Assembly: GCF_001652585.1 (NCBI RefSeq)
Contig: NZ_LWLG01000002.1
Coordinates: 180,001 to 212,000 of the forward strand
Source: Thermosulfurimonas dismutans
GTDB lineage: Bacteria > Desulfobacterota > Thermodesulfobacteria > Thermodesulfobacteriales > Thermodesulfobacteriaceae
Direction of reading: 5' to 3'
Length of the DNA: 32,000 nt
Shown here: positions 1,467 through 10,972 of the stretch, piece by piece
Numbering within the stretch: the stretch's first letter is position 1
Layout: every line of letters begins with the position of its first letter
Position numbers and translations under genes: made by a program
The notes under the pieces: model-generated
Seen by the model: the letters and a program-made list of their open reading frames with translations, nothing else
Database searches by the model: none
What the model was told of the DNA's origin: nothing

Positions 1467-2642
1467 CTATTTTTTATAGGTTTTAACCTCTTCCGTTCCA
1501 AGCCATAATGGAAAAATTTTGGAAAGAACAAACAATATAATTATAGGGGCAATAAGAATAATAATGGTAGGCAAAATACCTTCTTTCTCGAAGAACTCGG
1601 GATGATAAAACACAAAGCCTCTACCACTCTTAGACATCATTTGACCACCCACTACCACATTCCAACGCATGCAGTAAACCTGAATAAGGAGCATAATTGA
1701 AGAAATCGCAGACAGATATTGCAAGGCCTTACCTCTCACATTTGCTAAAGATAATACTCCAAGAACTACCAGAGGAATGAACGAGAAAATAAAAACTTGC
1801 ATTACCCAAAAACTAACATAAAGAGGACCAAATAGCAGTTCATGCAAATGATGCCAACTTTCTTTCCTTAAATAGGCATGAACTCCGACTTCAAGAAGCT
1901 CAAAAACTACGTCGATAATAAGAAATCCCCACAAGTATTTTACCAAAGAAGAAAGACACTCTTCGTCTACAGCGCGACCTTTAACCCAGTGAACAAACAA
2001 GTATCCCAAAATGATACCCGAAATACCCGAGACACAAGCAGAAAGAAGGAAAATAATTGGCATCAGAGGCGTTGACCACCATTCTACAGCTTTAACACTC
2101 CCAAAAATAAAACCTACATAACCATGAAGAATACAGGCCATAGGAATACCAATAAGAGCCAACCAACTAGTTACTTTATGATCAAACTGTAAAGTAGCTG
2201 GAGATAGGTCTTGATTACCAAAAGTAAGCAATCGATAAAGCGTGGCTTTAAAACCCGTAGTTTGAGGCAATAACTTGGCAAAAACGCCACGATAGAGGAA
2301 CAAAATCTCCAACAACAGAACCACCATATAAGCACTATAAATAAAACCAAATCCCGCCATAGCCGAGGTAGGGTGAGGAGTCAACATAATATTAAAACAG
2401 CGCTCGGGACGCCCAAGATGATTTAAAAGTGGCCAAGTACAACAAAAACCAAAAGCCAAAGCAAAGACGAGAGCAAACCGCGAAACCGGCTTCAAGGCCT
2501 TCACATGAAAGACATGATAAAGAGAGGAAACAATAAAAGCACCGGCAATAATCCCGGTAATATAGGGATAAGTAACGATCATCAAAGACCAATGAATATG
2601 ATGCTCATTAGGAAAAACAAAACCTTCAACCAATCCACTCAT
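1467..2642 (-). CDS. NrfD/PsrC-type polytopic membrane subunit (putative quinone-interacting)
   Basis: The track ORF starts at TTG 2645. An ATG at 2642 shares one base with the TGA of the upstream Fe-S gene (TGATG). The protein is almost entirely hydrophobic helices. Its size (about 390 aa) and its position directly after an NrfC-type Fe-S protein fit the NrfD/PsrC family. The call rests on topology and context, not on a diagnostic motif. Confidence 0.7.
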   Translation of the reverse strand: MSGLVEGFVFPNEHHIHWSLMIVTYPYITGIIAGAFIVSSLYHVFHVKALKPVSRFALVFALAFGFCCTWPLLNHLGRPERCFNIMLTPHPTSAMAGFGFIYSAYMVVLLLEILFLYRGVFAKLLPQTTGFKATLYRLLTFGNQDLSPATLQFDHKVTSWLALIGIPMACILHGYVGFIFGSVKAVEWWSTPLMPIIFLLSACVSGISGIILGYLFVHWVKGRAVDEECLSSLVKYLWGFLIIDVVFELLEVGVHAYLRKESWHHLHELLFGPLYVSFWVMQVFIFSFIPLVVLGVLSLANVRGKALQYLSAISSIMLLIQVYCMRWNVVVGGQMMSKSGRGFVFYHPEFFEKEGILPTIIILIAPIIILFVLSKIFPLWLGTEEVKTYKK

Positions 2643-3409
2643 CAAATAACCTCCTGCCTCAAATGGAGATACTTAAGCCTTGGTTTAGTGCCCATATCGG
2701 GCTTAAGAACTCCTAAAGGCTCACTACTTTTCAATATTTGGGCCACCTCCGAATTTTCATCTCTAAGATCTCCAAACTTGCGAGCCCCTGTAGGACAAGC
2801 ATTCACACAAGCTGGTAGCAAACCTCGCCTCACGCGGTGATAACACCAAGTACACTTATCTGCCGTTCGCCTCTCCTTATGAATAAAGCGAACCCCGTAA
2901 GGACAAGCTTGAACACAGTAAGAACAGCCAATACATCGTTTATAATCAATCAATACAAAACCATCGTCAGTCTTAAAAGTAGCCCCCACCGGACAAACCT
3001 GAACGCAAGAAGGCTCTTCGCACATATTGCAGAGCTTAGGAACAAAAAAGGCATCTCGAATGGGCTTATCTATCTCCCGGGGCTCAGGATAACCTTTAAG
3101 AGCTCCCTTTGGAGAATCCACATAGACTTCCCCACCTTCCGCAATAAGGTATCGCTCCACCCAGGTACGGTATTGGCCGTCCGGAACTTGATATTCTCTC
3201 TTATCCGCCACACAACAGCTTCCACAGCCGATACAACGATTGATATCGACCAAAAAGACGTATTCATGGGCTTCGGGATCATACTTTTCATCTCTCAAAA
3301 TACCCGGAAGCTGAAGAGGTACCTTCACCGGCATAGGAAGGACCCAGTAAAGGGATCCCGCAGCACCCTTGAGAAGATATCCCAAAAACTTACGGCGCCC
3401 TTTATTCAC
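2642..3409 (-). CDS. Tat-exported 4x[4Fe-4S] ferredoxin-type subunit (NrfC/PsrB/DmsB family)
   Basis: GTG start at 3409 preceded by GGAGGGGG. Twin-arginine signal MNKGRRKFLGYLLKGAAG. Four Cys groups: CIGCGSCC, CNMCEEPSCVQVCP, CIGCSYCVQACP, CTWC...ACVNACP. It overlaps the upstream cytochrome gene by 8 nt. Confidence 0.85.
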   Translation of the reverse strand: MNKGRRKFLGYLLKGAAGSLYWVLPMPVKVPLQLPGILRDEKYDPEAHEYVFLVDINRCIGCGSCCVADKREYQVPDGQYRTWVERYLIAEGGEVYVDSPKGALKGYPEPREIDKPIRDAFFVPKLCNMCEEPSCVQVCPVGATFKTDDGFVLIDYKRCIGCSYCVQACPYGVRFIHKERRTADKCTWCYHRVRRGLLPACVNACPTGARKFGDLRDENSEVAQILKSSEPLGVLKPDMGTKPRLKYLHLRQEVI

Positions 3410-3983
3410 GAGCCCCCTCCTTCTCCTTCTCTAAGCCTGCAAAGAACTCATCGGCCTGCTTGATGTACTTAAGCGGTGCGTGCACAAGGTGACACTGATC
3501 ACAAGAATGCGTCTCCTTCACGTTCTGCTTTTTCAAATGATCCGGATAAAACACGGTCTTGATAACCTCGGGATTTTTAGGACGAGCATGAATAGCCCGA
3601 TTGTGACACCGCAAACACAAAGCCCGAATAGCTTCACCTCCCTTGGGATTCGGAAGATACCCAATCACTTTCCCCTCGCTATTTACATGATCAGCCCAAG
3701 GACCATGACAGAATTCGCAAGAAAGACTTCGATGTTTACTATTGACCTGGAGTTCATATTCCCAGGTATGACAACTCTCGCAGGAGGCATTCGTGAGATG
3801 ACGCGGCATTCGAGCCAACTCGTCGTCGATAGCCCCCTTCCGATAGAACTTATAGAAGAGGCTGCCATGATTCCCCAAATCTTTGGGAACCAGAAAAGTT
3901 CGTACCGTAGCCGCCAAAACCACCAAAACCACCAGCCCTACAACTATCCTTTTTGCATGGGTGCGATTCGGCTTCTCAGACAC
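3402..3983 (-). CDS. Membrane-anchored tetrahaem cytochrome c (NapC/NrfH-like topology)
   Basis: GTG start at 3983 with an AAGGGAG SD. One N-terminal TM helix (IVVGLVVLVVLAATV) followed by four CxxCH motifs (CESCH, CEFCH, CLRCH, CDQCH). First gene of the operon. Confidence 0.8.
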   Translation of the reverse strand: MSEKPNRTHAKRIVVGLVVLVVLAATVRTFLVPKDLGNHGSLFYKFYRKGAIDDELARMPRHLTNASCESCHTWEYELQVNSKHRSLSCEFCHGPWADHVNSEGKVIGYLPNPKGGEAIRALCLRCHNRAIHARPKNPEVIKTVFYPDHLKKQNVKETHSCDQCHLVHAPLKYIKQADEFFAGLEKEKEGARE

Positions 3984-4086: not shown

Positions 4087-4782
4087 TTAACAGCGGATAA
4101 GAATTTCTGCGGAAAGGTGTTTTCTCAAGTAATCTGCCAGAGAAGAGACGATATCAGGAGGGAGGGAAGGACGGGGAAAGTCAGGGGCAAGGGTTTCGGC
4201 CTCGGGCACAAACTTTTGTAAAGCCACGCGCTTAACCTTTTTCAAATAGGGTAACATCTCCTCTAAATCCTGCTTAGCAACCAACCCAGGAGCTAGAGTA
4301 ATTCTTACTTCGGCACATCCATTGAGATCTCTGAGAAGTTCAAGAGTTTTCTCCACGGGATCAAAATCGGCCGAAAGTTCTGAATAACGGGAAGGGGCGG
4401 TCTTGAAATCCATAGCCAAATAATCGACAAGGCCTTCTGCCAGAAGAGAGGCCACCAACTCTGGGTTAGAACCATTAGTATCCAGTTTGACAGCCAGCTC
4501 GGTCTCATACTTGATTCTTTCCAAAAAGGCCTTAAGACGCCTTCCCCAGATAGTGGGTTCTCCTCCGGTAATGACTACCCCTTTAATGAACCCCTTGCGT
4601 CGCAAAAGATCAAAGAGAATTCCTTCTTCTGGAAGATCGGGAAGATTTTTTAATCTCTCCGGAAGAACCAGATCTACATTATAACAATAAGGACACCGCC
4701 AATTACAGCCCCCGAGGAAGACCACCGAGGCGATCTTCCCCGGGTAATCTACTACACTGGTTCCTCTAAACCCCTTGATCAT
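4087..4782 (-). CDS. nrdG: Anaerobic ribonucleoside-triphosphate reductase activating protein (radical SAM)
   Basis: N-terminus GTSVVDYPGKIASVVFLGGCNWRCPYCYN carries the CxxxCxxC radical-SAM motif typical of the roughly 230-aa NrdG type. Its ATG directly abuts the TAA of the glycyl-radical ORF. Confidence 0.85.
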   Translation of the reverse strand: MIKGFRGTSVVDYPGKIASVVFLGGCNWRCPYCYNVDLVLPERLKNLPDLPEEGILFDLLRRKGFIKGVVITGGEPTIWGRRLKAFLERIKYETELAVKLDTNGSNPELVASLLAEGLVDYLAMDFKTAPSRYSELSADFDPVEKTLELLRDLNGCAEVRITLAPGLVAKQDLEEMLPYLKKVKRVALQKFVPEAETLAPDFPRPSLPPDIVSSLADYLRKHLSAEILIRC

Positions 4783-4959
4783 TTAGCAACCACAAGTACG
4801 ACGAGCGAATTCCTTAAAGGAATCGATTCTCACGGTCTTCCTTTCGGAAAATTCCTGCTGTTTTCCGGAATTCCAGTTCTGAACCGGCCGGAAATAGCCC
4901 ACCACCCGGCTGTAGATCTCACAGGGTACTACTTTAACCTTTACTTTCTCTCTAATCAT
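4783..4959 (-). CDS. Stand-alone 58-aa glycyl-radical domain of class III RNR (NrdD C-terminal module encoded as its own ORF)
   Basis: Not in the track because it is under 60 aa. Hand translation gives MIREKVKVKVVPCEIYSRVVGYFRPVQNWNSGKQQEFSERKTVRIDSFKEFARRTCGC. SRVVGY...NWNSGKQQEF..R matches the NrdD glycyl-radical signature (RVxGY...NxGKxxE). AAGGAGGTGA lies 3 nt upstream of the ATG. An in-frame TGA sits two codons upstream. The ATG overlaps the nrdD stop (CATGATTAG). Confidence 0.7.
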   Translation of the reverse strand: MIREKVKVKVVPCEIYSRVVGYFRPVQNWNSGKQQEFSERKTVRIDSFKEFARRTCGC

Positions 4960-7087
4960 GGCTCACCTCCTTTCTCACGTTTTCTTGAAAGAGAGGACCT
5001 TCAGGCCCCTCTTGAGGTTCAACCATGCGATAGGCCTCCTCAGGGAGCACCTTCAAGGCCTCGATAAAAACCTCTACCTCTCGACCATAGCGAGCGAGAT
5101 CCTCCTCTGTGTGGGGATAAGGACAAAATTCGTGTTTCCCGGGAAGATAACCGTGGACCGGACAAACTGAAAAAGTGGGCGTAATAGAGAAGTACGGAAG
5201 CCGGAAATTGTTAACCACCGCCTTTACCAATTCCTTCACCATCCCGGTATCCGGAATTTCCTCGCCTACAAAAAGATGAACCACCGTGCCTCCGGTAAAG
5301 AGGGCCTGAAGGTCATCTTGGTGAACGAGGATCTCAAAGATATCGTCGGTGTAGCCCACTGGAAGATGTACGGAATTGGTATAATAAGGCACTTTTTCAG
5401 TGCCTGCGGTCTTTATGCGCGGGAACTTCTTTTTGTCCAAGCGGGCCAGCCGATAGCTAGCTCCCTCGGCTGGAGTGGCCTCGAGGTTGTAGAGATTGCC
5501 CGTCTCCTCCTGGAACTCGGAGAGTTTATCCCGCATAAACTTTAGCACTTTGATTACCCATTCCTTAGCCTCGGGATGGTAGATAGGAAGTCCCAAGAAG
5601 TTGAGACAGGCTTCATTCATACCGATCACACCAATCGTAGAAAAGTGATTCCCCCAGTAACGGCCACTACACTCTTTTACCGCCTGGAGATAGACTCGAG
5701 AGTAAGGGTAGAGCCCTCGTTCGGTAAAGTCCTCAATAACCTTGCGCTTGATCTCAAGAGAGGTCTTAGCGAGTTCCATGAGGTCCGAAAGGCGCTCAAA
5801 GAATTCCTCCTCGCAGGTCGAGAGATAGGCAATACGAGGCATATTGATGGTTACCACCCCAATGGAACCCGTAAGAGGCGAAGCTCCAAAAAGCCCACCT
5901 CCCCGTCTCTCAAGCTCACGGTTGTCGAGCCTCAGGCGACAACACATACTACGGGCATCCTCGGGACGCATATCAGAATTCACAAAGTTGGCGAAGTAAG
6001 GAATACCGTATTTGCGGGTCATCTCCCAAAGAGGTTCGATTTCGGGGTTATCGTAGTCAAAGTCAGGAGTGATATTGTAAGTAGGAATGGGAAAAGTAAA
6101 GATGCGACCCTTGGCATCGCCTTCAAGCATGAGCTCGCAGAAGGCCCGGTTGATCATGTTCATCTCTTCCTTGAACTCGGCGTAGGTCTCCGGTATATCC
6201 CGGCCGCCCACTACCGCCGGAATGTCCTTCAAAGTCTCGGGGCACTCAAGGTCAAAAGTCAAATTGGTAAAAGGCGTCTGGAACCCTACCCTCGTGGGCA
6301 CGTTGACGTTGAAGATAAATTCTTGGAGACACTGCTTAACCTCTTCGTAAGAGAGACCATCATAGCGGACAAAAGGGGCCAGCAGGGTGTCAAAATTAGA
6401 GAAAGCCTGAGCCCCTGCGGCTTCACCCTGTAGGGTATAGAAAAAATTAACCACCTGTCCCAAAGCACTCCGGAAGTGTTTGGGAGGTGCGGATTCAACC
6501 TTCCCTGGGACACCGCCGAATCCGCGTTTCAAAAGTTCGTAGAGATCCCAGCCCACACAGTACGGACCAAGAATCCCTAGGTCATGAACATGAAAGTCGC
6601 CCTCAAAATGGGCCTCGCCAACCCTGGTCGGATAGAGTTTGTTCAGCCAATACCGAGCTACCACCGAGGAGGAAATATGGAAGTTAAGCCCCTGGAGACT
6701 GTAATTCATGTTGGAATTTTCCTGAACCCGCCAGTCCTCCCGGGTAAGGTACTCCTCAATGAGGTTGACCCCGTCCACCAGAGCTTTACCCAGTTCCCGG
6801 GCCTGACGGCGTTTCTCACGATAGAGGATGTAGGCCTTGGCCACATCCGCAAAACCAAGCTCCATCAAAGTCTTTTCCACCAGATCCTGGATCTGCTCCA
6901 CATGCGGAACACCGCCATGCTTGAAAAACTGGCGATAGAGTTTTACGGCCACGGCATCCGCTACTTTTTCCGCTGAGCCCTTATCCCCCTGCCCCACGGC
7001 CCGCATGGCCTTAAGTACCGCCCGGATAATACGGCGCCGATTAAAAGGCTGAAACTTACCATCTCGCTTTCTAACCAAAGGCTCCAT
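4952..7087 (-). CDS. nrdD: Anaerobic ribonucleoside-triphosphate reductase (class III) large polypeptide, lacking the glycyl-radical C-terminus
   Basis: N-terminal ATP-cone (VRKRDGKFQPFNRRRIIRAV...ILYREKRR). NrdD-type core (SMCCRLRLD, GSIGVVTINMPRIAY, NLEATPAEG). Ends ...VRKEVSHD without an RVxGY motif. ATG 7087 with an AGAGGGGGA SD. Confidence 0.9.
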   Translation of the reverse strand: MEPLVRKRDGKFQPFNRRRIIRAVLKAMRAVGQGDKGSAEKVADAVAVKLYRQFFKHGGVPHVEQIQDLVEKTLMELGFADVAKAYILYREKRRQARELGKALVDGVNLIEEYLTREDWRVQENSNMNYSLQGLNFHISSSVVARYWLNKLYPTRVGEAHFEGDFHVHDLGILGPYCVGWDLYELLKRGFGGVPGKVESAPPKHFRSALGQVVNFFYTLQGEAAGAQAFSNFDTLLAPFVRYDGLSYEEVKQCLQEFIFNVNVPTRVGFQTPFTNLTFDLECPETLKDIPAVVGGRDIPETYAEFKEEMNMINRAFCELMLEGDAKGRIFTFPIPTYNITPDFDYDNPEIEPLWEMTRKYGIPYFANFVNSDMRPEDARSMCCRLRLDNRELERRGGGLFGASPLTGSIGVVTINMPRIAYLSTCEEEFFERLSDLMELAKTSLEIKRKVIEDFTERGLYPYSRVYLQAVKECSGRYWGNHFSTIGVIGMNEACLNFLGLPIYHPEAKEWVIKVLKFMRDKLSEFQEETGNLYNLEATPAEGASYRLARLDKKKFPRIKTAGTEKVPYYTNSVHLPVGYTDDIFEILVHQDDLQALFTGGTVVHLFVGEEIPDTGMVKELVKAVVNNFRLPYFSITPTFSVCPVHGYLPGKHEFCPYPHTEEDLARYGREVEVFIEALKVLPEEAYRMVEPQEGPEGPLFQENVRKEVSHD

Positions 7088-7130: not shown

Positions 7131-7158
7131 ATTATACCTACACCATAAAGTGTGTCAA
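7131..7158 (-). promoter_or_regulatory. Consensus sigma70-type promoter for nrdD
   Basis: The minus strand reads TTGACA (7158-7153), a 16-nt spacer, then TATAAT (7136-7131). The -10 ends about 43 nt upstream of the nrdD ATG. Confidence 0.6.
7140..7155 (-). promoter_or_regulatory. NrdR-box-like operator 1 (in the promoter spacer, overlapping the -35)
   Basis: ACACCATAAAGTGTGT is an imperfect 16-bp palindrome. It resembles the published NrdR box consensus acaCwAtATaTwGtgt. Confidence 0.5.
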
Positions 7159-7169
7159 GCATAGACTAT

Positions 7170-7185
7170 ACACAATATATTGAGA
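7170..7185 (-). promoter_or_regulatory. NrdR-box-like operator 2 (upstream of the -35)
   Basis: ACACAATATATTGAGA matches the left two-thirds of the NrdR box consensus. It lies 30 bp centre-to-centre from box 1, about three helical turns, as is typical of tandem NrdR boxes. Confidence 0.45.
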
Positions 7186-7213: not shown

Positions 7214-7245
7214 AAAAATAAAAAAGGGGAGGCATCCGCCCCCCC
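7214..7245 (-). terminator. Rho-independent terminator after the molybdoenzyme operon
   Basis: The minus-strand RNA reads GGGGGGGC-GGAU-GCCUCCCC, an 8-bp stem including one G-U pair, followed by UUUUUUAUUUUU. It starts 28 nt downstream of the Fe-S subunit stop codon. The stem has an A-C mismatch on the plus strand, so the terminator is strand-specific. Confidence 0.75.
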
Positions 7246-7272
7246 TTCCTGAAATACAATAGTAATTGCGAA

Positions 7273-8097
7273 TTAGCCTAGAACCGGAATCTTCTTCAGG
7301 GCCAGTTTCAGGACATCGCGCCGGCTAGGAGCCTTGGCTTCCACCTCTTCCCAAGTGCGCTTACGAGGAGCAAAACGCTTGATAAGCAGTTCCAGATTCT
7401 TTTCTTTACCCATGAAGTAGACGTTGGGGCCAATTTTGACCACATCAGATTCCAAACGTCGGGCTTTTCCGCTTTTCACGAGCTTAGAGACTTCGGAGTT
7501 GGGATCTCCAAGATCTCCAAAGATACGGGCATCAGCGATACAGGTTTTTACACAGGCCGGTATCTCACCGTGTATGATCCGCTCGTAGCAGAAAGTGCAC
7601 TTGTCGGCCTTGGGTTCATCCAAGGTATCGTTGAGATACCGAGCCTTATAAGGACAGGCCTCTACACAGTTTCCGCACCCGAGGCAGCGCTCCTTATCAA
7701 TGAGAACCGCCCCGGTAAAAGGTTCTTTATAGGTGGCCTTGATCTCCATCTTAACGGTCTTTCCGGTCTTATAGCACTTGAACTCCCGCTCCTCGGGATC
7801 CGCCGGACACACCTCCACACATACCGGCCGGTCACAGTGGTTACACAAACCCGGAAAGAAGGTGAAGGCCAAGCCCTTGCTGGTCCGTTCAGGTCCCAGT
7901 CTTAAAACCCAATTACGGCGATAATCGCCCCCTTCTGCCGAGACCGTCTGAAGCCAGTCGTTGTAATCCTTAATAAAGGAATAACCGTCATAGTTCGGAT
8001 TTACCGGAACCTGCCATTCGGCCCGGCAGGCCACGGCACAGGCATGACACCCCACACACCGATCTAGATCTATGACCATAGCCCATTGGTGCTTCAT
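7273..8097 (-). CDS. 4x[4Fe-4S] electron-transfer subunit of a molybdopterin oxidoreductase (PsrB/PhsB/DmsB family)
   Basis: Cys groups CVGCHACAVAC, CNHCDRPVCVEVCP, CLGCGNCVEACP, CTFC...ACVKTC. It has no signal peptide of its own, so it may be exported with the Tat-signal-bearing A subunit. AAGGAGGT SD. At 274 aa it is larger than typical PsrB, with insertions and a basic C-terminal tail. Confidence 0.85.
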   Translation of the reverse strand: MKHQWAMVIDLDRCVGCHACAVACRAEWQVPVNPNYDGYSFIKDYNDWLQTVSAEGGDYRRNWVLRLGPERTSKGLAFTFFPGLCNHCDRPVCVEVCPADPEEREFKCYKTGKTVKMEIKATYKEPFTGAVLIDKERCLGCGNCVEACPYKARYLNDTLDEPKADKCTFCYERIIHGEIPACVKTCIADARIFGDLGDPNSEVSKLVKSGKARRLESDVVKIGPNVYFMGKEKNLELLIKRFAPRKRTWEEVEAKAPSRRDVLKLALKKIPVLG

Positions 8098-8109
8098 TTT
8101 CTACCTCCT

Positions 8110-10416
8110 TTAACCCTTCTTGATTTCAAACCGAGGAATTTCATTAGGTACCGGGCGAAGCTCCGGAATATTCAAAACCTTACCGTCTTTCACGATCCGG
8201 ACAAAATTCGTCCGGTGGCTCGAGGCTCCCATAAAGGGATCCTGTACGTAGTAGGTAATCAGAAATTGATCACTAGCCCCCTTCTTGTAAGCCCGGGAAA
8301 GCTTGGGAGAAAGGCTTCCAAAACCGTGAGGGAGATAGATGCAGTCCGGCCGGATACCCGGAGTGACCTTGGCCTTGACCGGGAAGGAACGCTTACCGTC
8401 CTGGTTTTCAAGGATGATTTCGTCACCATCTTTGATGCCGATTTTGGCCGCCACTTCATCGTTTATCCAGGCGTGGTTTTCAGGCCATTCGTGGTGAAGC
8501 CACTCGTTGTTCATAGTCCGGCTAAAGGTATGCACTGGCACACGACCGTAAATGAGACGGGCATAACCCTTGGGAGGCGCCGGCGTGGGTTCGAACTTAG
8601 GCACCGGCGAAAAGTCTTCATCTGCAAAGTCTTCGATGGTCAAATGAACTTTGAAGCCCTTTTCACCAAAGATATTCTTGAAATTCTCACGATCATAGGC
8701 TCCCTTGGCCGGGAGGACCACCAGCCCCCCTTCCTCCCTGAGCTTTTCCAAAGTAAGGTTGAGGCCTTTGAGCTTTTCGTTGATGATCTCTTCTTCCGAC
8801 TCCGCGTGGAAGATATCAAAACCCATACGCTTGGCCAGTTCCTTGGCTACCCAGAAAGGCGGTTTAGCCTCTCCCAGAGGTTCCACGGCCGGCTGACGCA
8901 CAGTCACAAAACACTCTGGAAGACCGTCATAAGTATAAACATCATCGTAACGTTCGAGATAAACCGCATCCGGCAGAACGATATCAGACCAAAGGGCCGT
9001 TTCCGTAGGCAACATCTCTAAGGAGAACACGAAGTCCAGCTTTTTAAGGGCTTCCATCGTCTGATAGGGATTGGGGATAGTCTGAAGAATGTTTACCCCG
9101 CAGATACCCCAGGCCTTAATGGGATAGGGTTCCCCCGTAATAGTGGCCCGGATGATCTCATGGGTGGGATTCCCAGGCAAAGGCCCCGCAAAGGGATATT
9201 TTTCCTTGAGGGGCTCGTCAGACTCCTTCGGCTCCATCTCCTTCACAGAATGTACGTGTCCCAAAGAGATAGGCGTGGGGAAGTAGAGCCCTCCTGGAGT
9301 TCCGATACCACCAAAAAGGGCCGCCAAGATGGCCAAGGCCTGATGCCTATATACGTCTCCCTTACCATACCAGGTGGAGTGCCGCCCCGGATGGATGCAG
9401 ACATGGGGCTTAGCCTCCGCAAGCATCTTGATGGCCGCCTCAATGTCTTCCTTCTTGAGGTCACATATCTTGGCCGCCCAATCCAGGGTATAGTCCTTAA
9501 CGGCTTCCTTAAGCTCGGAAAAGCCTTCACAATATTTGTTCACAAACTCCTTATCGTAGAGCTCGTGCTTAATCACATAATTGATCCAGGCTAAAAGCAA
9601 CGCGGTATCCGTTCCTGGACGGATAGGGAGCCAGATATCGGCCTTACCGGCAGCCACTGAAAACCGAGGATCAACCACCACCAGTTTGGCTCCCTTAGAA
9701 AGTCCACCAACGAAATCCATTACATGAGATACATGAACGTTCTCACCAATGTGGGAGGCCACCAGCAACATGGCCTTAGCATTGGCCATGTCGGTGTACT
9801 GCATAGTCCCAGAGGTGAGATATCCCATGGTGGAAATGTAGGCTATGGCCACCGGCCCCACACACTGGAAAAACGCGGGCTCATTGGAGTAATTTTCCGT
9901 ACCAATGGCCTTGAAGATCTCCCGCAGAGGTTCCGCCGAAGCCCCATGATCAAAATAAGCAATAGCATGCGGTCCGTATTTATCTTTGACTTTCTTGAGG
10001 TTATAGGCCACCTCGTCCAAGGCTTCGTCCCAAGAGATCTTCACAAACTTACCTTCCCCTCTAGCTCCCTTTCTCTTCAAAGGATGGAGCACACGGTCAG
10101 GATCATAGAGCAACTTCACACCCGAGTTACCACGGGCACAAACCCGGGCCTTGTCGCCCCGACCATTGGTGGGACTCTTAGGGTTACCCTCAATCTTGAC
10201 CACCTTGCCGTTCTTGACCTTGGCCACAATAGGACAGCGCCAGAAGCACATCTCGCAGACCGAAGTTACCTCCTTGGCCCCTAGACTTCCCGGAAGCTCC
10301 CCACCCGTATCGCAATGGGCATAAGCCTTCTTAAAAAAGCTTCCGGATCTGAGATCCATAGTGGCCAGAGCCAAAGAGGCCCCTGCCGAAAGCTTAAGAA
10401 AATCTCTTCTCTTCAT
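8110..10416 (-). CDS. Tat-exported molybdopterin oxidoreductase catalytic subunit (PsrA/PhsA-like polysulfide/thiosulfate reductase family)
   Basis: The track starts at TTG 10422. ATG 10416 has GGGAGGAGG 6 nt upstream and gives MKRRDFLKLSAGASLALA...AYA, a Tat signal. The N-terminal Fe-S motif CEMCFWRCPIVAKVKNGKVVKIEGNP is very similar to PsrA/PhsA. Length about 768 aa. No in-frame TGA. Confidence 0.85.
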   Translation of the reverse strand: MKRRDFLKLSAGASLALATMDLRSGSFFKKAYAHCDTGGELPGSLGAKEVTSVCEMCFWRCPIVAKVKNGKVVKIEGNPKSPTNGRGDKARVCARGNSGVKLLYDPDRVLHPLKRKGARGEGKFVKISWDEALDEVAYNLKKVKDKYGPHAIAYFDHGASAEPLREIFKAIGTENYSNEPAFFQCVGPVAIAYISTMGYLTSGTMQYTDMANAKAMLLVASHIGENVHVSHVMDFVGGLSKGAKLVVVDPRFSVAAGKADIWLPIRPGTDTALLLAWINYVIKHELYDKEFVNKYCEGFSELKEAVKDYTLDWAAKICDLKKEDIEAAIKMLAEAKPHVCIHPGRHSTWYGKGDVYRHQALAILAALFGGIGTPGGLYFPTPISLGHVHSVKEMEPKESDEPLKEKYPFAGPLPGNPTHEIIRATITGEPYPIKAWGICGVNILQTIPNPYQTMEALKKLDFVFSLEMLPTETALWSDIVLPDAVYLERYDDVYTYDGLPECFVTVRQPAVEPLGEAKPPFWVAKELAKRMGFDIFHAESEEEIINEKLKGLNLTLEKLREEGGLVVLPAKGAYDRENFKNIFGEKGFKVHLTIEDFADEDFSPVPKFEPTPAPPKGYARLIYGRVPVHTFSRTMNNEWLHHEWPENHAWINDEVAAKIGIKDGDEIILENQDGKRSFPVKAKVTPGIRPDCIYLPHGFGSLSPKLSRAYKKGASDQFLITYYVQDPFMGASSHRTNFVRIVKDGKVLNIPELRPVPNEIPRFEIKKG

Positions 10417-10972
10417 GGACAACCTCCTCCCGCAGTCTATTTGTAATTACCGAAACCAGTTCCCCTAAAGCCCTGTAAAAGGGCTTGGGCTCAGCTTGTT
10501 TCAAGGCCAACAAAAACCGGGGATACCATTTCAAAAAGTGGTCTTCAAGGAAACCCCGAAGCAAGTCTTTACGATTTTCTTCCAGAAGCAAGGCCATAAA
10601 AGCCAGTTCATAGGCCACATGATCAGCAAAGTCACCATCCTCCACCGGCTCATAGCCGGCCTCGCGATAAAAGGCTAGGGCCTGATCATAACCTTCACCC
10701 TTGAGACGCCTGTCAGAAGAAAGATAAACCGAGGCATATGGAGGAGCTGGAGTACGGTAAGGAGAAGTAATGAAAAGTCGGGTATATTCGACTTTGAGTT
10801 CCTCTAAATCTTCCACCCGAAAATCTCCGTTAAGATCTAAACCAGCTTTTCGGGAAAGGGCCTGAAGATAGGAGATTAGGCTCAAAAAGCCCTCTTCTTC
10901 TGGATAGAGGAAGGCTTCCGCCAACATTCTCAGATCTTCAGGCCCAAACATAGCGGGTTCCCATTTAAACAC
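10394..10972 (-). CDS. TorD/DmsD-family redox-enzyme maturation chaperone
   Basis: About 190 aa with EYTRLF...PYASVY blocks typical of the TorD family. It sits immediately upstream of, and overlaps by 23 nt, the Tat-dependent molybdoenzyme gene. The start is uncertain: GTG 10972 or ATG 10951. Confidence 0.7.
   Translation of the reverse strand: MFKWEPAMFGPEDLRMLAEAFLYPEEEGFLSLISYLQALSRKAGLDLNGDFRVEDLEELKVEYTRLFITSPYRTPAPPYASVYLSSDRRLKGEGYDQALAFYREAGYEPVEDGDFADHVAYELAFMALLLEENRKDLLRGFLEDHFLKWYPRFLLALKQAEPKPFYRALGELVSVITNRLREEVVHEEKRFS

Follow-up and report, generated by a model that had tools for sequence, protein, structure and literature searches.

A probable two-piece class III ribonucleotide reductase with a stand-alone glycyl-radical peptide in Thermosulfurimonas dismutans

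Gene layout of the nrd locus

The stretch of DNA analysed here (32,000 nucleotides, positions 180,001–212,000 of Thermosulfurimonas dismutans contig NZ_LWLG01000002.1; hereafter the 32-kb window) carries genes for an anaerobic (class III) ribonucleotide reductase (RNR), all on the minus strand. nrdD-large (4952–7087) encodes a catalytic subunit of 711 aa, ending ...VRKEVSHD*, with an ATP-cone, a ten-stranded barrel and a metal-binding ribbon, but the R-V-x-G-Y glycyl-radical motif is found nowhere in this open reading frame (orf). The motif is instead encoded by a separate 58-aa orf (MIREKVKVKVVPCEIYSRVVGYFRPVQNWNSGKQQEFSERKTVRIDSFKEFARRTCGC*; 4783–4959), the putative glycyl-radical subunit, with Gly21 at 4897–4899, a basic KVKVKV strand at the N-terminus and C-G-C at the C-terminus. 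nrdG, encoding a radical S-adenosylmethionine activase of 231 aa, follows (4087–4782; ATG at 4780–4782).

At the junction (...AAGGAGGTGAgccATGATTAG) the ATG of the small orf (4957–4959) precedes the nrdD-large TAG stop (4952–4954), giving an 8-nt overlap. A Shine-Dalgarno (SD) site, AAGGAGGTGA (4963–4972), lies 3 nt 5′ of this ATG and includes a TGA in frame with the small orf (4963–4965), while at the other end the TAA of the small orf (4783–4785) directly abuts the nrdG ATG (TAAATG). The first-pass annotation had described a 711-aa NrdD lacking RVxGY and a 58-codon orf carrying it, which reading of both orfs bears out; the 3-nt SD spacing, the in-frame TGA, the start/stop overlap and the abutting TAA that it reported all agree with the coordinates.

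KEVSHD, the end of the large subunit (within 4955–4972), is encoded by the SD region of the small orf, and the same tail positions read K-E-V-T-H-G or E-V-R-H-G in relatives. This large-orf end (K-E-V-S/T/R-H-...) mirrors AAGGAGGTGA because the large orf of the Thermosulfurimonas group reads on through the ribosome-binding site, and the tail at 4955–4972, where the predicted local distance difference test (pLDDT) score of the model is <50, looks constrained by an RNA signal rather than by protein function. The 8-nt overlap in the window is a lineage-specific variant. In Thermosulfurimonas sp. F29 the large orf (P0204, 747 aa; small partner P0008) appears to overrun the start of the small orf in another frame, with a tail that, judged by eye, partly resembles an out-of-frame glycine-loop region; the small orf is separately annotated.

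Two reading frames covering one NrdD

The large orf matches Pfam NRDD (PF13597) over model positions 1–537 of 562 (E 2e-180; 601 bits, cut-off 26) and NCBIfam NF006126 over positions 5–653 of 684 (1035 bits, cut-off 548), and the small orf matches PF13597 positions 533–560 of 562 (37 bits, gathering score 26.2; E 2e-9) and NF006126 positions 650–682 of 684. As these ranges adjoin, the two orfs tile a single NrdD model, with about 47 + 11 (~58) extra residues at the break. The RVxGY loop, which a class III RNR carries in the same polypeptide, is missing from the large orf alone and supplied by the 58-aa orf; by its motifs, the definition of the enzyme fits the pair and not the large orf alone.

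The remaining parts expected of a class III RNR are present. The ATP-cone (PF03477, E 6e-24) spans residues 4–94 of the large subunit (6806–7078). The finger-loop motif M381-C-C-R384 (5936–5947) is, from its sequence, of the double-cysteine type (classes as in PMC9669993), and the surrounding S-M-C-C-R-L-R (residues 380–386), which provides the thiyl-radical cysteine, is invariant among 75 aligned relatives. Four putative ligands of the metal-binding ribbon (C642-P-V-H645 ... C655-P-Y-P-H659; 5111–5164), two of them His instead of Cys, all lie in the large subunit and are kept in 39/39 large/small pairs. The NrdG orf scores 169 bits against TIGR02495 (NrdG2; cut-off 131), as a cognate activase should. 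An AlphaFold model of the large part superposes on the solved NrdD structures 9d3x, 8p28, 4coi and 1h7a with template modelling (TM) scores of 0.6–0.75; by sequence the nearest solved NrdD is distant (8p23, E 8e-40) and its alignment stops short of the C-terminus.

Two variations in these parts were seen among relatives. One large subunit, P0236, has lost all four metal ligands (SPVSGY...FDPNPQ), and in its inferred partner, P0118 (paired through a longest contig of 36,010 nt in both), Thr replaces the Cys ahead of E-I-Y-S-R; the metal ribbon thus appears dispensable in some split enzymes, at least in the P0236 lineage. A C-terminal Cys pair (CGC, CC, CSC or GCGCG), at variable distance from the glycine loop, was identified in 19/39 small subunits from several subclades, including that of the window (C56-G57-C58; 4786–4794) and those of L009, L010, L017, L036–L038 and L042. 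Such pairs recall the redox pairs of class I and class II RNRs, and by analogy could shuttle electrons to the double-cysteine site or bind metal.

The split among relatives

The glycine motif is absent from the C-terminus in 115/120 of the closest large-orf relatives (63–99% identity), which have tails like that in the window. A genome scan using one genome per species returned 42 related loci, and in 38 of them the large orf is followed by a small orf (52–82 codons) that carries the glycine motif; none is fused, and the other four contigs end before this point. Carriers belong to Thermodesulfatator, Thermodesulfobacterium, Caldimicrobium, Thermosulfurimonas, other Thermodesulfobacteriota and WOR-3. 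Across the 38 loci the two orfs are related by the same, +1 or +2 frame, the nrdD stop may precede the small-orf start by up to 46 nt or follow it by up to 20 nt, and a GGAGG-like site is found 5′ of most small-orf starts. With all frame relations and variable offsets represented, neither sequencing error nor any single recoding mechanism explains the split. The same three-gene order was found in a distant member of the family (NrdD, 679 aa; small orf, 72 aa; NrdG, 239 aa).

Comparison of the small orf in the window with that of L027 gave proportions of synonymous (pS) and nonsynonymous (pN) differences of 0.42 and 0.028, respectively, and over five close relatives pS was 0.42–0.64 and pN 0.014–0.028 (pN/pS about 0.05), values that indicate strong purifying selection on the small reading frame.

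The peptide also has many stand-alone homologs. A word-indexed search identified 387 clusters at 90% identity, the best 120 all 41–86 aa in length, with records from the complete genomes of Thermosulfurimonas marina and Thermodesulfobacterium sp. TA1. A profile built from 57 homologs and run against 1.84 billion representatives at 50% identity gave 4997 matches at E ≤0.001; the best 150 are all stand-alone proteins (47–106 aa), and the 140 of these that were newly retrieved all begin with M or V. The core, (P)CE(V/I)YSR(V/I)VGY(F/L/Y)RPVxxWNxGKxxEF, is almost invariant, with 14 invariant columns (S-R-V-x-G-Y included) across the 57 diverse homologs, and is flanked by very diverse N- and C-terminal extensions. 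Cluster look-up traced these diverse small proteins almost entirely to metagenomes. Pfam, NCBIfam and PHROG contain no dedicated family for the peptide, and database entries label it ‘hypothetical protein’ or ‘anaerobic ribonucleoside-triphosphate reductase’.

The first-pass proposal of an independent cistron rather than a trivial frameshift is thus upheld by the 115/120 relatives, the 38 loci in all frames, the purifying selection and the hundreds of stand-alone clusters. Of the checks suggested with it, alignment against full-length NrdD models gave the tiling of PF13597 and NF006126 by the 711-aa and 58-aa orfs, and related genomes proved to conserve the split, mostly with an SD site and with 0 fused among the 38 loci.

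A single fused exception, P0193 (712 aa; junction ...YGIEV-NSRK-QIPCEVY), is nested in the split clade. Its gene (L043, 3001–5139; JGI 3300000866, hot-spring sediment) is on a phage-like contig beside Gp3-like, PD-(D/E)XK nuclease and UDG-PolA genes, and no nrdG lies next to it. P0193 is an apparent secondary re-fusion after viral capture.

Many close large subunits of 1000–1240 aa contain intein or LAGLIDADG domains (PF14890, PF14528), among them P0122, P0125, P0126, P0160, P0161, P0170, P0178, P0180, P0182 and P0186, so mobile elements are frequent in this NrdD clade.

Predicted structure at the break point

The C-terminal extension of the large subunit (residues 660–711; 4955–5110) consists of an acidic G-R-E-V-E-V strand, an L..LP..AY(R/K) segment and a lineage-specific tail that is presumably disordered (pLDDT <50 for 691–713). 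DSSP assigned a strand (669–674) and a helix (675–679) within this extension of the model. An acidic (Y/F)G-x-E-x-E strand follows the ribbon in 28/39 pairs, the mean net charge of the tail being −4, and the L..L(P/S)..AY(K/R) segment is conserved in split large subunits and absent from fused relatives. On the other side of the break, (K)VKVK(V/A)(V/I)P at the N-terminus of the peptide stands just ahead of CE(I/V)YSRVVGY; [KR]x[KR] is present here in 36/39 pairs, with a mean charge of +1.2. In an AlphaFold2 model of the concatenated large and small proteins, residues 669–674 and 716–721 are both strands.

The link between the two sides is short in fused relatives (CPYDHAEEELKSVAHRNGRVLCEVYSRIVGY in an outlying fused clade). 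P0193 joins both sides through NSRK only, so the ends created by the split are neighbors in the folded enzyme. This arrangement suggests that a hairpin-like connection was opened and both of its strands lengthened into a charge-complementary zipper.

Modelled alone with its 57 homologs, the peptide (pLDDT 81.5) has strands at 14–17 and 22–25 and helices at 31–38 and 45–55, and is predicted to form a classical glycyl-radical finger, a beta-hairpin with Gly21 at its tip. A Foldseek search of the 58-aa model, a very short query, against the PDB returned no significant match. A metal site shared between the chains and bridged by the Cys before E-I-Y-S-R was also considered and rejected as a general rule, as Thermodesulfatator-type partners have Val at this position while their large subunit keeps four ligands.

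Promoter and genomic context

A sigma-70 promoter for the nrd operon (TTGACA-16 nt-TATAAT; minus strand, 7131–7158) matches the consensus at 12/12 positions. Two palindromes resembling NrdR boxes (7140–7155 and 7170–7185), 30 nt apart, overlap this promoter; they are the only matches in the window to ACACWATATATWGTGT (≤3 mismatches), taken as the established NrdR consensus, against a chance expectation of 0.06 matches. The overlap would imply control of the split operon by NrdR. A terminator-like hairpin belonging to the upstream gene is located at 7221–7250 and none was found inside the nrd operon. An Rfam scan of the window identified no RNA family, and therefore no riboswitch or known recoding element. 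With a perfect promoter, NrdR-like boxes, no internal terminator and NrdG above its curated cut-off, the operon looks functional and regulated.

No other NrdD is encoded within the window. Respiratory oxidoreductase genes, encoded on the same strand, flank the nrd operon in two sets (1467–3983 and 7273–10972); the upstream set encodes a molybdopterin subunit, an FeS (iron-sulfur) subunit and a NarJ-like chaperone, and the downstream set a multihaem cytochrome c, an FeS subunit and an NrfD membrane subunit.

Interpretation and alternatives

Very probably, the locus encodes a class III RNR as two polypeptides which, together with the activase, form one operon. The most likely role of the peptide would be that of an obligate small subunit which carries the radical, with NrdG as its activase and the large subunit as the body into which it docks; as the large subunit is without any glycine loop, the peptide is better seen as an obligate subunit than as a spare part.

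We infer that the large subunit, peptide and NrdG would be translated from one mRNA, the peptide from its own strong SD site and the ATG overlapping the end of nrdD, an overlap that points to translational coupling and roughly matched amounts, and NrdG probably by termination-reinitiation at TAAATG. NrdG would then abstract the C-alpha hydrogen of Gly21, and the hairpin of the peptide would enter the large-subunit barrel and face the finger-loop cysteine, like the covalent domain of one-piece NrdDs. Two features would aid docking: the basic K-V-K-V-K-V strand of the peptide would pair with the acidic G-x-E-V-E-V strand of the large subunit, and the conserved L..LP..AY segment that the large subunit has gained at the break would also contribute. 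Catalysis would proceed as in one-piece enzymes of the double-cysteine type, a finger-loop type linked to thioredoxin-dependent reduction and represented by the T. maritima enzyme (PMC9669993). A free peptide may be a more accessible and easier substrate for NrdG. Oxygen cleaves a glycyl-radical protein at the glycine; speculatively, the benefit of the split could be that after such cleavage the 6.7-kDa peptide is lost while the 81-kDa body is re-armed.

Several points count against this two-polypeptide interpretation. The proposed benefit is speculative. In the concatenated model the barrel is good but the glycine loop has pLDDT <50 (729–769); the underlying alignment has almost no homologs in the glycine-loop region, where MAFFT misaligned the few fused relatives and all of the small proteins, so the model is silent on docking. 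Some lineages have V, P, T or A where others have the Cys preceding E-I-Y-S-R, and this Cys is therefore not a universal metal ligand bridging both chains. Finally, inspection of the source genome covered the 32-kb window, which bears on whether there is a second RNR.

Taken alone, an 8-nt overlap of orfs in different frames resembles a single-base indel, as would be generated by a sequencing or assembly frameshift or in a recent pseudogene, the true gene encoding one NrdD of ~765 aa. This is almost certainly wrong, as 38 independent genome loci show the break, among them those of the isolates Thermodesulfatator autotrophicus and Thermodesulfobacterium hydrogeniphilum, and in proteins from the complete genomes of Thermosulfurimonas marina, Thermodesulfobacterium sp. 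TA1 and Thermodesulfatator indicus; all three frame relations occur, as do intergenic spacers with stop codons, and given the ~58 extra residues at the break compared with fused relatives, repair of one base would not restore a normal NrdD. Programmed frameshifting or read-through could also yield a fused NrdD, with the SD-like sequence a stimulator rather than a start signal: AAGGAGGTGA lies 8 nt before the TAG, and an internal SD-like sequence near a stop is known to stimulate +1 frameshifting in prfB. We regard such recoding as extremely improbable. From one relative to the next, the mechanism would have to be −1 frameshifting, +1 frameshifting or read-through, in many cases across spacers of 10–45 nt with stops in every frame, and on one 95-kb contig the genes are 1.37 kb apart; nearly all small orfs, moreover, keep an ATG (few have GTG or TTG) and a variable N-terminal extension, and orphan copies of the peptide exist without a nearby NrdD.

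Those same orphans, found away from nrdD on a bacterial contig, on many viral contigs and in virus ANMV-1, show that the peptide can exist as an autonomous module and lend some weight to its being a GrcA-like spare part or regulator, with the normal radical site elsewhere, e.g. on a second full-length NrdD. The adjacent large subunit, however, is entirely devoid of a glycine loop and so depends on a donor to work at all, relatives keep the large-small-nrdG order together with its translational coupling, and a second NrdD is not encoded in the window; a spare-part role at this locus is accordingly very unlikely. A decaying relic, in which the split NrdD is inactive and deoxyribonucleoside triphosphates come from another RNR class, gains some room from the view of the genome being confined to the window, but it is very improbable: both orfs are intact and strongly conserved (relatives at 65–99% identity), no catalytic motif varies, purifying selection acts on the small orf, and the consensus promoter, NrdR-like boxes and an intact NrdG have been kept. 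A split intein with trans-splicing was rejected, since neither orf contains an intein or Hint domain, the extra segments are just 47 and 11 residues, and no H-N followed by C/S/T is found where the conserved part of the small orf begins.

Stand-alone copies of the peptide

One bacterial member of the 58-aa family is an orphan among unrelated genes on a 130-kb contig. Among the best 80 viral loci (IMG/VR; L046–L125), 64 have a small orf without NrdD within 6 kb, even by iterated profile; the others comprise 11 ordinary full-length NrdDs, four split arrangements and one locus with large and small genes 1.37 kb apart. A Pfam check of large neighbors in three orphan loci identified NRDD in none. 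The separated pair (L050, 2480–6132; 95-kb IMG/VR contig) consists of a large gene (708 aa) and a small gene (52 aa) either side of small unknown orfs, including one for a zinc-ribbon protein, with a ThyX-like gene then following; large and small genes therefore need not be coupled.

The archaeal (ANME-1) virus ANMV-1 (KP703175.1, 25525–25959) encodes a 144-aa protein with a zinc ribbon and CEMYSRIVGY, and no NrdD or NrdG was found in the 38.5-kb record. Orphan peptides with their own zinc ribbon have it at the N-terminus (L083, L113, L071, ANMV-1) or at the C-terminus (P0369, P0375). Short matches among GenBank phages came only from ANMV-1 and one unannotated gut phage record; a match in an Oceanotoga phage proved to be an ordinary full-length NrdD.

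The 58-aa orf could be a member of a family of autonomous glycyl-radical peptides of NrdD type, large and so far unrecognised, with two modes, obligate subunit of a split RNR and free-standing module that re-arms or commandeers a host class III RNR, a proposal we put forward tentatively and with some doubt. The split-subunit arrangement is found in the window and in Thermodesulfobacteriota, WOR-3, Aquificota-like and other lineages, and free-standing copies in some bacteria and, above all, in viruses. By analogy with known spare parts, the orphan peptides may serve class III RNR as genuine spare parts, or act on it as factors of host takeover, under oxygen damage or during infection. If so, they would be to RNR what GrcA/YfiD and T4 Y06I are to pyruvate formate-lyase (PFL), and would answer the question, raised in PMC8683613, of spare parts for glycyl radical enzymes beyond PFL.

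Relation to known enzymes

Class III RNR is described in textbooks as a single catalytic chain plus an activase, and to our knowledge the solved structures and mechanistic studies concern the one-piece enzyme in every case. A two-piece enzyme would be common in thermophilic anaerobes, with a radical element that could be made, labelled, activated and titrated apart from the body, and the separate peptide would be ideal for studies of NrdG access to the glycine, of loop entry into the barrel and of the onset of radical transfer. The split suggests a built-in logic for repair of oxygen damage and, together with the orphan and viral copies, makes the spare-part question beyond PFL directly testable. 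Annotation is affected as well: the small gene often goes unnoticed or is called ‘hypothetical’ while the large gene is named as a complete NrdD, and surveys based on the glycine motif would miss the split clade.

The two-piece class III RNR is visible in databases but apparently undescribed in the literature searched: no description of a stable two-cistron NrdD with a glycyl-radical small product was found in openly searchable full text, and none is mentioned in a 2026 review of glycyl radical enzymes (PMC13450708) or in a survey of RNR insertions and extensions (PMC9669993). This agrees with the first-pass statement that no two-piece NrdD had been characterised.

The first-pass comparison with GrcA/YfiD stands in part. 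Like GrcA/YfiD of E. coli and Y06I of phage T4, the small orf encodes a small stand-alone glycyl-radical protein that would be activated by a cognate radical S-adenosylmethionine enzyme and act in trans with a large body whose own loop is missing or unusable (PMC8683613), and the idea of a radical carried in trans is retained. The spare-part aspect is not, as GrcA repairs full-length PFL that has been cleaved by oxygen whereas the partner of the small orf has no loop of its own to lose or have replaced. The families also differ: GrcA belongs to the PFL-type Gly_radical family (PF01228, IPR011140), while the small orf matches NrdD models only, a Pfam scan (E ≤0.1) returning PF13597 alone and NCBIfam only NrdD models, with no Gly_radical match. 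Validated spare parts are limited to YfiD and Y06I, both for PFL, although others may exist for other glycyl radical enzymes (PMC8683613).

Other RNRs are also encoded by adjacent genes and assembled into an active enzyme, namely NrdJa/NrdJb of Pseudomonas aeruginosa (class II) and NrdA-a/NrdA-b of Aeromonas phage Aeh1 (class I) (PMC9669993, PMC3653736), but these are of other classes with other break points, and in neither is the radical-storing element separated. In Aeh1 an inserted homing endonuclease gene was the cause of the split, and there is no such gene in the window. In phage genomes nrdD is the RNR gene most often split (6/16 split cases; PMC3653736), examples of interruption being the T4 group I intron with I-TevII, the phiAS4 fragments, nrdD-a/b of Lactococcus phage 949 and the inteins of Clostridium phage c-st. 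Those genes are interrupted by introns or inteins or were fragmented recently, and they are spliced or of unknown function, in contrast to the stable, widely inherited two-cistron design seen here, with its own ribosome-binding site.

The closest comparison is with one-piece class III RNRs (phage T4, E. coli, Thermotoga maritima and Prevotella copri) and their NrdG. The ATP-cone, barrel, finger-loop cysteine, metal ribbon, glycine-tipped hairpin, radical S-adenosylmethionine activase and overall fold are common to these and the split enzyme. The metal site of phage T4 NrdD has four cysteines, compared with CxxH...CxxxH in the split enzyme. Beyond this, the split enzyme differs in that its glycine hairpin would be a separate 58-aa polypeptide with its own translation start, and in the conserved extension that its large subunit has acquired at the C-terminus, where the break lies.

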